Virus record (IMG/VR): IMGVR_UViG_3300026549_001031
DNA from: a virus
Lineage: Duplodnaviria; Heunggongvirae; Uroviricota; Caudoviricetes
Strand: one strand, 5' to 3'
Length of the DNA: 64,000 bases
Positions within the stretch are counted from its first letter, which is position 1. Each line of letters begins with the position of its first letter. Under the pieces are notes generated by a model that saw only the letters and a list, made by a program, of their open reading frames with translations, was not told where the DNA came from and did no database searches. A program made the position numbers and the translations under genes. This document shows positions 55,046-63,278 of the stretch, piece after piece.

Positions 55046-55942
55046 ATGCAGTTGGTACTCATAGCAATCATTAAAGGTGGTAGGCAGTATAAACAAATTA
55101 GTGGGTTTAGAATAATTGACAGTGATACACGAGAAGTACAGGATATTGCATATAATAATGTAATTAGTACATTAAGAAATGGAAATGCAACAGTTGATGG
55201 AATTGATGTATCAGGGTCTGAACCTAAGGGCAGCAATGGTAGTTTTGATAGATATGCACAGATTGCTGATGGAGTACCTGTTGGTAAATGCCCTGCAGTG
55301 ATATTAAAAGAGTATGCAAATAAGGTTTATGATGTGTCAGACCCTTTTGGTAGAGTGGTTCAGATGACAGAGCAATCAATAATTGATTATGCATCTGTAG
55401 AGGGTTTAGCCAACGGTAAGGTAGTAAATGAGCATATTAGCAGTATAAATGGATCATATAATGCTGATAAGTCATTACTTAGGGCAAAATCAGGAGACAA
55501 GCTGAAACAGAAAATGCGTATACTTGGAGAGACTAATACAGTACTGAATGATGATAATTACTTAGAAAGTATAAAGTCAGACGAAGAAGCAGTATCAGTT
55601 GGCGTAGGTTGTTTAGGTATATGCAGTGAGGCGTTTAGGGAGTGTCCTAATGTAAAAGAGATACACTTACCTTCAACTTGTGTAAACTTTGATGAAAAAG
55701 CCTTTGCAGGTTTGAAATACTTGGAGAAGATAAATATACCTGATGGTACAGTGGAGATTTCTAGAATGTGTTTTTTGAATTGTAGGGCACTTAAGGAAAT
55801 TGAGTTACCTAACTCTATAAGGAAAGTTGGAGACAGTGCTTTTAGAGGAACAGCACTCAAGAAAGTAAGTGTAGGACCTGTAAGGTTTAGTCAGGGTAGG
55901 ACTTGCTTCCCTGCATCAGCTAGGTTACAAATAAGACATTAG
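55046..55942 (+). CDS. Shared N-terminal domain fused to BspA-type leucine-rich repeats (LRR_5)
   Basis: AFRECPNVKEIHLP, LEKINIPDGT, CRALKEIELPNSIRKVGDSAF; ATG 55046 after GGAGG; no signal peptide. Confidence 0.8.
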   Translation: MQLVLIAIIKGGRQYKQISGFRIIDSDTREVQDIAYNNVISTLRNGNATVDGIDVSGSEPKGSNGSFDRYAQIADGVPVGKCPAVILKEYANKVYDVSDPFGRVVQMTEQSIIDYASVEGLANGKVVNEHISSINGSYNADKSLLRAKSGDKLKQKMRILGETNTVLNDDNYLESIKSDEEAVSVGVGCLGICSEAFRECPNVKEIHLPSTCVNFDEKAFAGLKYLEKINIPDGTVEISRMCFLNCRALKEIELPNSIRKVGDSAFRGTALKKVSVGPVRFSQGRTCFPASARLQIRH

Positions 55943-55959
55943 GAGGAGGAAAGATAGAC

Positions 55960-62231: not shown

Positions 62232-62279
62232 TCATACAGTGGGAAATAGAAATAAAGTATTAAAATAGGAGGAAGCAAC

Positions 62280-63278
62280 ATGGCAGTAAAGAGATTTGGT
62301 GCAGTGGTAGGTATTGAAGAGAATAAAGAAAATAAGGTATACAGAGTTGTAATTGCACAGTACAATCAAAATGCTGATGGACAGACAGATTGGCAGTTCA
62401 GTTGTAGGAAAATGACTGAATCAGAATTATTTGGTACATTGACAAATGGAGCACAGTACATAAATGTTTCATTGGGTGGCTCTGGTAAAATTGAGTGGAA
62501 GTCAGGTGCAGCTAGTAGGTTTAACAGCAATAAAAGGCATAGACCTTATGTAATTATTTCACAGATCTTAAATAATGATGATAAGATCATAGGTTTTAAG
62601 GTTGCAGACTTTGATGGAAATGTAAAAAACATTAAAGCAAAAGAGATGATTGCATATGGTTACAGAATGACAAAGTTTGGAGACACACCTGTTCAAAATG
62701 CAATGTTTGTTCCATCTGATGAAAAGACAGGTAAGAAAGCTTTCTACAAGGCTTATCCAGGTAGTAAACTTTTTAAGGAAAAACTGGTCGTTAATAAAAA
62801 TAAATACAACAAGCAGGCTAAGAAACCTGACATCAATAAAAATAAAGAGTCACTTAGTAAATTGGAGCAGATATACACTCCTGAACAAATTAAGCAGTTG
62901 AAAGAGGGTAAAGCACAGGGAGTTGACATTAAGATCTATGCAAATCCTGCTTTATCAGCAGAGCAAATGAAATGGCTTAAGTTTGGTTTAACTAAAGGTG
63001 CTGATGTAAGATGTATTGCATTTCCTGAATTTAAGTTAGAAGCAATGCAGTATTATGTATGCGAGTTAATTGATGGAATGGACATTAAGAAGTATTTAAA
63101 CACAGAATACAATGCTGAACAGATTGCAGAATTGAGTTTAGCAGTTGAGGAGGGATTGGACATTAGTAATATGGCTAATCCTAAGAATTCAGCTTCTGAC
63201 ATGGCTGAGATAAGAGAGAGATTAGAGTATAACATTTGGAATGATATGTTAGTCACTAAGGATGGAAGTTGGAAGTAG
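62280..63278 (+). CDS. Divergent shared N-terminal domain + C-terminal ~26-aa helical repeats
   Basis: SGAASRF...PYVII...IIGFKVADFDG; repeats of the form EQ..L..G...G.DI..YANP. Confidence 0.8.
   Translation: MAVKRFGAVVGIEENKENKVYRVVIAQYNQNADGQTDWQFSCRKMTESELFGTLTNGAQYINVSLGGSGKIEWKSGAASRFNSNKRHRPYVIISQILNNDDKIIGFKVADFDGNVKNIKAKEMIAYGYRMTKFGDTPVQNAMFVPSDEKTGKKAFYKAYPGSKLFKEKLVVNKNKYNKQAKKPDINKNKESLSKLEQIYTPEQIKQLKEGKAQGVDIKIYANPALSAEQMKWLKFGLTKGADVRCIAFPEFKLEAMQYYVCELIDGMDIKKYLNTEYNAEQIAELSLAVEEGLDISNMANPKNSASDMAEIRERLEYNIWNDMLVTKDGSWK

Follow-up and report, generated by a model that had tools for sequence, protein, structure and literature searches.

A family of giant plasmid-like elements from the gut has expanded one small domain, and many of the family's own proteins carry it in one copy or two. 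The starting point was a window of 64,000 nucleotides, the whole stretch analysed here (IMG/VR record IMGVR_UViG_3300026549_001031), in which a first-pass annotation had proposed a five-part sensor–remodeller–effector system joined through a shared N-terminal domain. The arrangement is real and apparently undescribed, and it combines a known pair of proteins with a distant member of an already named family of domains of unknown function. The conserved unit is a trio made up of a MoxR ATPase, a peptidase-vWA protein and a 332-aa repeat protein. The five genes do not form a fixed unit, and the object of interest is the element-wide tag rather than the five-gene system.

The five open reading frames lie head to tail on the plus strand of the window at 55046-63278 (Table 1), and the cargoes first assigned to them were borne out. 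Gene A matches BspA LRR_5 (E 9e-20), gene C combines a DUF2201_N peptidase (E 8e-30) with a DUF2201 vWA domain (E 1.6e-13; PF13203 and PF09967), the ATPase is a MoxR-type AAA_5 protein and gene E carries helical repeats. The sequence motifs are likewise intact, including HExxH (aa 306-310) and MIDAS (aa 631-635, 691 and 722) of gene C, both kept in 16 homologs, Walker A/B of the ATPase and C-x-x-x-H...FG-x-x-C of gene B. With these catalytic motifs in place, the MoxR and peptidase-vWA pair looks active. Hydropathy gave no transmembrane segment or signal peptide in any of the five proteins. Gene C matches phrog_1314 (E 4e-73) and the ATPase phrog_1297 (E 3e-60); the 'HNH endonuclease' label of phrog_1314 was rejected for gene C, as the match spans the peptidase-vWA region.

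Table 1. Features of the window discussed in the text (all on the plus strand).
Feature	Position	Size	Description
Backbone gene beside gyrB	35541..36479		two repeat copies (single-repeat profile)
Backbone gene between gyrB and gyrA	39241..40206		one C-terminal repeat copy (single-repeat profile)
Stand-alone tandem repeat	53022..53468	148 aa	conserved upstream of IF-3; above Pfam DUF3892 cut-off
Terminator-like hairpin	54867..54905	17 bp	closes upstream IF-3 unit; five-gene unit begins downstream
Gene A	55046..55942	298 aa	tandem DUF3892-like N-domain (aa 1-139) and BspA-type LRR; accessory
Gene B	55960..58671	903 aa	tandem N-domain (aa 1-145), conserved helical domain and variable C-terminus; accessory
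Gene C	58702..60990	762 aa	TTG start; tandem N-domain, DUF2201_N zincin-like peptidase, acidic linker and vWA; core
MoxR-type AAA+ ATPase	61050..62231	393 aa	AAA_5; Walker A/B intact; without N-domain; core
Gene E	62280..63278	332 aa	divergent tandem N-domain and four ~26-aa helical repeats; core, strongly conserved
HAD-like gene, split	63282..63775	66-aa and 94-aa ORFs	last of probable unit; DxDxT-type motif in first piece
Terminator-like hairpin	63795..63822	12 bp and T run	ends unit

The cargo of gene B has no family match in Pfam, NCBIfam, PADLOC or PHROG, and its Atlas features fall under 0.9. Its helical domain has a probable zinc site, with C260, H264 and C313 invariant in 20 homologs, and its variable C-terminus holds two short S-D-K-Q helical motifs. 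A likeness of the cargo model (pLDDT 77) to the SMC-like LmuB (best Z 5.7) was dismissed as generic, the matches being at the level of coiled coils. PLSDB gave no match to gene B and returned only distant MoxR proteins, and gene E has no Pfam, NCBIfam, PADLOC or PHROG match. No toxic effector domain was detected for the effector arm of the proposed system. As had been expected of a new system, the cluster gave no PADLOC or NCBIfam match apart from a weak AAA match to DolB (E 0.006, PADLOC).

A strong hairpin flanks the five-gene set on either side, at 54867 and at 63795, and the set, with the trailing HAD-like gene, is probably one transcription unit. RNA-run contigs from two studies break at about 54860-55040 and end at 63784-63786. 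Because they stop at both hairpins where a DNA-type run continues, these contigs, which carry no measure of expression level, hint weakly at a single unit. A promoter scan did no better than chance (44 against 43.7), so a candidate site at 54992-55020 was given no weight. In a related strain (run X7) the HAD-like phosphatase gene contains an extra base, at 63474, and the split of that gene is therefore probably strain-specific.

The N-regions of genes A, B and C (~145 aa) share 32-36% identity (E 1e-20 to 9e-24), and that of gene E is a divergent copy (blastp E 3e-5 and 5e-4; HMM 1.1e-5), much as first reported. Described at first as a single region of ~140 aa, it is indeed homologous among the carriers but is really a tandem of two ~70-aa repeats in the AlphaFold2 model (pLDDT 94), each modelled as three strands, a helix and two strands; the two halves align weakly by profile (E 3e-4). 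The motifs quoted for it occur in genes A, B and C, but one of them, ANGKVV, is missing from gene E. Reversed-sequence decoys score E of at least 0.2 against the single-repeat profile, so the homology is not due to chance. The domain is non-catalytic, with invariant Arg, Tyr and Lys residues and a modest net charge (mean +2.8; window copies -3, +1 and +3). Neither Foldseek against the PDB nor BFVD gave a match at E<=0.001, and a VIA fold search gave a best Z of 4.0, followed by chromo and chromoshadow domains at Z ~3; the missing match to a solved structure neither demonstrates a new fold nor argues against a dsRBD or HPF one.

The N-domain appears to be a remote relative of DUF3892 (PF13031), with the same predicted fold. 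The stand-alone copy at 53022 scores above the Pfam cut-off (24.6 against 22.3 bits) and the copies in the four cluster genes below it; DUF3892 is the top family in 6 of 11 orthologs of 53022 and in 4 of 32 gene C domains. In a reciprocal HMM search the repeat recovered a true DUF3892 protein (E 4e-6), and the second repeat superposes on a DUF3892 Atlas model (TM 0.61 by target, r.m.s.d. 2.0 Å, 62 residues; both are predicted models). Citing papers give Burroughs and Aravind 2020 as the source of the family, which predictions have tied to defence operons (10.1101/2022.04.27.489752). There it is typically a small stand-alone or Min-Wnt-fused domain, whereas here it is duplicated, occurs a dozen or more times per element and is joined to both enzymes and repeat proteins.

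DUF3892 has also been proposed as a dsRBD/HPF-like RNA or ribosome sensor (10.1101/2025.01.14.632903), and by extension the module may bind nucleic acid or the ribosome, each carrier being targeted independently with no complex formed. Besides that fold proposal, the neighbouring IF-3, SmpB, gyrase and ParB-HNH genes, a DNA ligase (LigA) among the cargoes and the invariant Arg, Tyr and Lys are consistent with such binding. The modest net charge argues against it, as do structural matches that reach only Z 3-4 and are chromo-like, and we regard it as quite improbable.

The domain is not confined to the five-gene cluster: a single-repeat profile finds seven carrier genes in the window (35541, 39241, 53022, 55046, 55960, 58702 and 62280), the first three of them outside the cluster. 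Relatives have 14 carriers (G001, 268 kb), 8-9 (G004, 250 kb) and at least 4 (G007, circular, 265 kb), counts from which divergent G007 copies at E 0.01-0.2, the decoy range, were left out. A tandem profile retrieved 1,154 protein clusters (50% identity), and in the best 150 matches the domain is N-terminal in all 150, joined to LRRs (31), peptidase-vWA (27), B-type (24), a ~660-aa class (23), a B-related ~760-aa class (18), WG repeats (2) and others. At least six cargo classes can be told apart; those identified are LRR, WG, DUF285, LigA and peptidase-vWA, and several large cargoes have no assignment. Among the carriers are a full-length NAD-dependent DNA ligase (LigA) in G001, a fusion retained down to ~49% identity, and a DUF285 repeat protein. 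G007 also holds long runs of 450-790 aa proteins of no known family (L137, 1-16000; L149, 239000-264000), some with BspA LRRs, whose N-termini resemble very divergent repeat copies and score in the decoy range.

We favour, at a little short of an even chance, the reading that the domain serves as a docking tag across the whole element, a tagged chaperone-protease being a core function. The many carriers per element, the LigA fusion and the variety of cargo classes argue for a tag, and so does a paralog array without a nearby MoxR gene. In that array (L051, 1-14040) six ~660-aa paralogs and one split copy, all with the tandem domain at the front, stand in a row that adjoins the transfer region and a DnaX-like gene; their cargoes share 27-29% mutual identity and have no Pfam, NCBIfam or PHROG match, and no MoxR gene lies within the 22 kb examined. 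The domain is also better conserved than its cargo in gene A (58 against 38%) and gene B (65 against 45%), and it is absent from 400 other Lachnospiraceae-family genomes. Against a tag stand the links of DUF3892 to defence operons and RNA or ribosome sensing, the LRR, WG and DUF285 repeats and paralog arrays, which look like conflict-type recognition proteins, the absence of LigA from G004 and G007, and the decayed N-domain of gene C in G007.

MoxR hexamers remodel clients gripped by the vWA MIDAS. On this established biology, the MIDAS of gene C would grip a client and the MoxR ATPase ring would remodel it, and the fused zinc peptidase could also cut it. The tag would dock its carriers to a single partner or site peculiar to the plasmid and shared by them all, for instance a replication or maintenance hub. 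Docked there, the tags on genes C and E would bring the remodelling and processing machine to other tagged proteins, its clients. The LRR and 903-aa proteins would be tagged but optional passengers and may serve as clients or substrate adaptors.

Conservation across relatives separates the trio from genes A and B. Gene C, the MoxR gene and gene E occur together in 13 of 13 distinct loci, 12 of which lie behind IF-3 or, where flanks are visible, inside a ParB-HNH, IF-3 ... SmpB, MscS, ClpB backbone. This count is biased upward because gene C or E was the way in to most of the loci, and the inflated co-occurrence of these two genes weighs against the docking tag; L052 and L136, found through B-type genes, still carry the trio. 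Synteny of all five genes, the check set for the original proposal, did not hold: gene A adjoins the trio in 5/13 loci and a B-type gene in 4/13 (a distant B paralog in 2 more), both are missing beside it in 6/13, and in circular G007 an LRR gene and the B ortholog form a pair 118 kb from the trio. Genes A and B are thus accessory. A further MoxR/DUF2201 pair on one relative, its members separated by several genes (L037:2305-8964; G001 22305-28964), lacks the N-domain, which is also absent from all 75 viral DUF2201 loci beyond this family.

The trio resembles the vWA-MoxR ternary conflict systems (Kaur et al. 2020, PMC7159879), which also combine MoxR, vWA and a third conserved gene, and in which a core component likewise shares a small non-enzymatic domain with other proteins, the effector-associated domain (EAD). 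An EAD-like system here would use homotypic N-domain contacts to assemble LRR and repeat sensors, a MoxR-vWA remodeller and peptidase and 903-aa effectors against phages or rival plasmids. The probable operon, the presence of DUF3892 in predicted defence operons, the variable LRR, WG and DUF285 cargoes with their arrays, and the lack of a PADLOC match all suit it, and EADs too occur elsewhere in the genome (PMC7159879). One contig encodes a natural fusion of genes A and B in a single ORF (P0027, 1156 aa; domain and LRR, then domain and Zn-motif cargo), which also counts in its favour.

Three defining features of such systems are nevertheless lacking, since the vWA has no C-terminal effector, the five genes are not co-conserved and the domain copies group by cargo. 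The vWA forms the protein end in 16 of 16 aligned homologs of gene C, a fixed architecture without the variable effector that follows vWA in the ternary systems, and the third core gene is not VMAP, iSTAND, FtsH or a beta-propeller. EAD copies are closest between adjacent genes; here identity is 41.5% among copies with the same cargo against 30.6% among same-operon neighbours, the reverse of that rule. The domain tree agrees, clustering copies by cargo (support 96/94 for the A clade and 99/94 for the B clade), so the fusions are old and vertically inherited. The 118-kb separation in G007, the domain on LigA and on gyrase-region genes, and a locus that is fixed backbone rather than variable island point the same way; ternary systems lie on chromosomes of multicellular bacteria, the trio in a plasmid backbone. 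We therefore consider an EAD-like system rather unlikely. Grouping by cargo and the fixed backbone around the trio (ParB-HNH, IF-3, SmpB, MscS and a ClpB-like ATPase; window 50115-54189 and downstream parts of L001/L003/L006) speak instead for the docking tag.

The closest known relative of the enzyme pair is found in group 2.2 jumbo phages (PHROGs 1297 and 1314), where a MoxR-type ATPase adjoins a vWA co-chaperone with an N-terminal HExxH metallopeptidase and the two have been proposed as a chaperone/processing unit for assembly (Iyer et al. 2021, PMC7824862), a role that supports the chaperone part of the docking-tag reading. The present pair differs in its plasmid-like element, in the extra tandem DUF3892-like domain on the co-chaperone and in its constant 332-aa third partner. 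Were the element itself a jumbo phage, the trio would serve virion assembly as a chaperone/protease, and the domain would be a tag for packaging into the capsid. Relatives do carry viral labels, in IMG/VR and, as Uroviricota, in the ESM Atlas, but PF03237, PF17289 and PF04984 (5-6 elements) and PF05065 (one) gave nothing over cut-off for terminase, sheath or HK97 capsid, from which divergent versions could escape. The complete circular G007 has no over-cut-off terminase or sheath match either, the N-domain occurs in 0 of 50,697 phage records, and conjugation and ParM-like genes are present, which makes a phage very improbable.

With VirB4-like and FtsK-like genes and no terminase, capsid or sheath match over cut-off, we read the elements as conjugative megaplasmids despite their viral labels. 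The family comprises gut elements of 250-630 kb, including a 464.7-kb human-gut contig that encodes an identical gene E protein, and one Lachnospiraceae MAG contains contigs of it; gyrase, ParA/MinD-like, FtsK-like and VirB4-like genes are common to the elements. The window has ~36% GC and its own gyrase and DnaB-like genes. Hodor conjugative megaplasmids (PMC12934698) are similar in gut origin, size (>300 kb), probable Bacillota hosts, divergent type IV secretion and filing in viral databases without terminase. Compared by description, they differ in the hallmarks considered, having 44-47% GC and a >7,300-aa protein, whereas complete G007 has no ORF near 7,300 aa; Hodors are further marked by Rep_3 and sortases, and the Hodor paper (PMC12934698) does not mention MoxR or vWA.

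A divergent conjugation-like cluster occupies window 31-25466, with pilin-like membrane proteins, 915- and 1715-aa proteins, ParA/MinD, VirB4/HerA-like and FtsK-like ATPases and a lipoprotein; it is syntenic in three relatives at 25-70% identity, and no relaxase was identified there. The domain could be a transfer signal for this type IV system, by which a tagged ligase, LRR proteins and peptidase would be co-transferred to help establishment in the recipient, with the MoxR-vWA pair preparing or refolding them. The VirB4-like, FtsK-like and pilin-like cluster is kept in all four elements compared, the trio of G007 lies two genes behind it, and conjugative elements are known to co-transfer proteins (PMC5512222). 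In most relatives, as in the window, however, ~30 kb separates the trio from the transfer genes and its neighbours are IF-3/SmpB/ClpB; some domain copies are stand-alone or C-terminal, and no relaxase with the domain was identified. Most known type IV signals are also C-terminal, and we hold a transfer signal to be improbable.

A wider picture is possible but doubtful, in which these are undescribed 250-630 kb conjugative megaplasmids of the gut with private protein sorting, the DUF3892-derived tag marking a dozen or more proteins for a hub or for transfer to the recipient and the tagged trio loading, remodelling or processing them. One domain labelling many unrelated proteins of a mobile element implies a subcellular organisation or protein export undescribed for plasmids. 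DUF3892 and the widespread MoxR/DUF2201 pair gain a concrete setting with candidate clients, and the domain marks a family of giant gut elements filed as viruses though conjugative plasmid-like. Elsewhere in the window, 25594-31258 is a variable island in which a TelA-like gene precedes several paralog-like membrane proteins that the three relatives compared do not have. In gene E the ~26-aa helical repeats (window 62840-63230) match no Pfam model, and such repeats also stand N-terminal to FapA domains in P0300-P0302.
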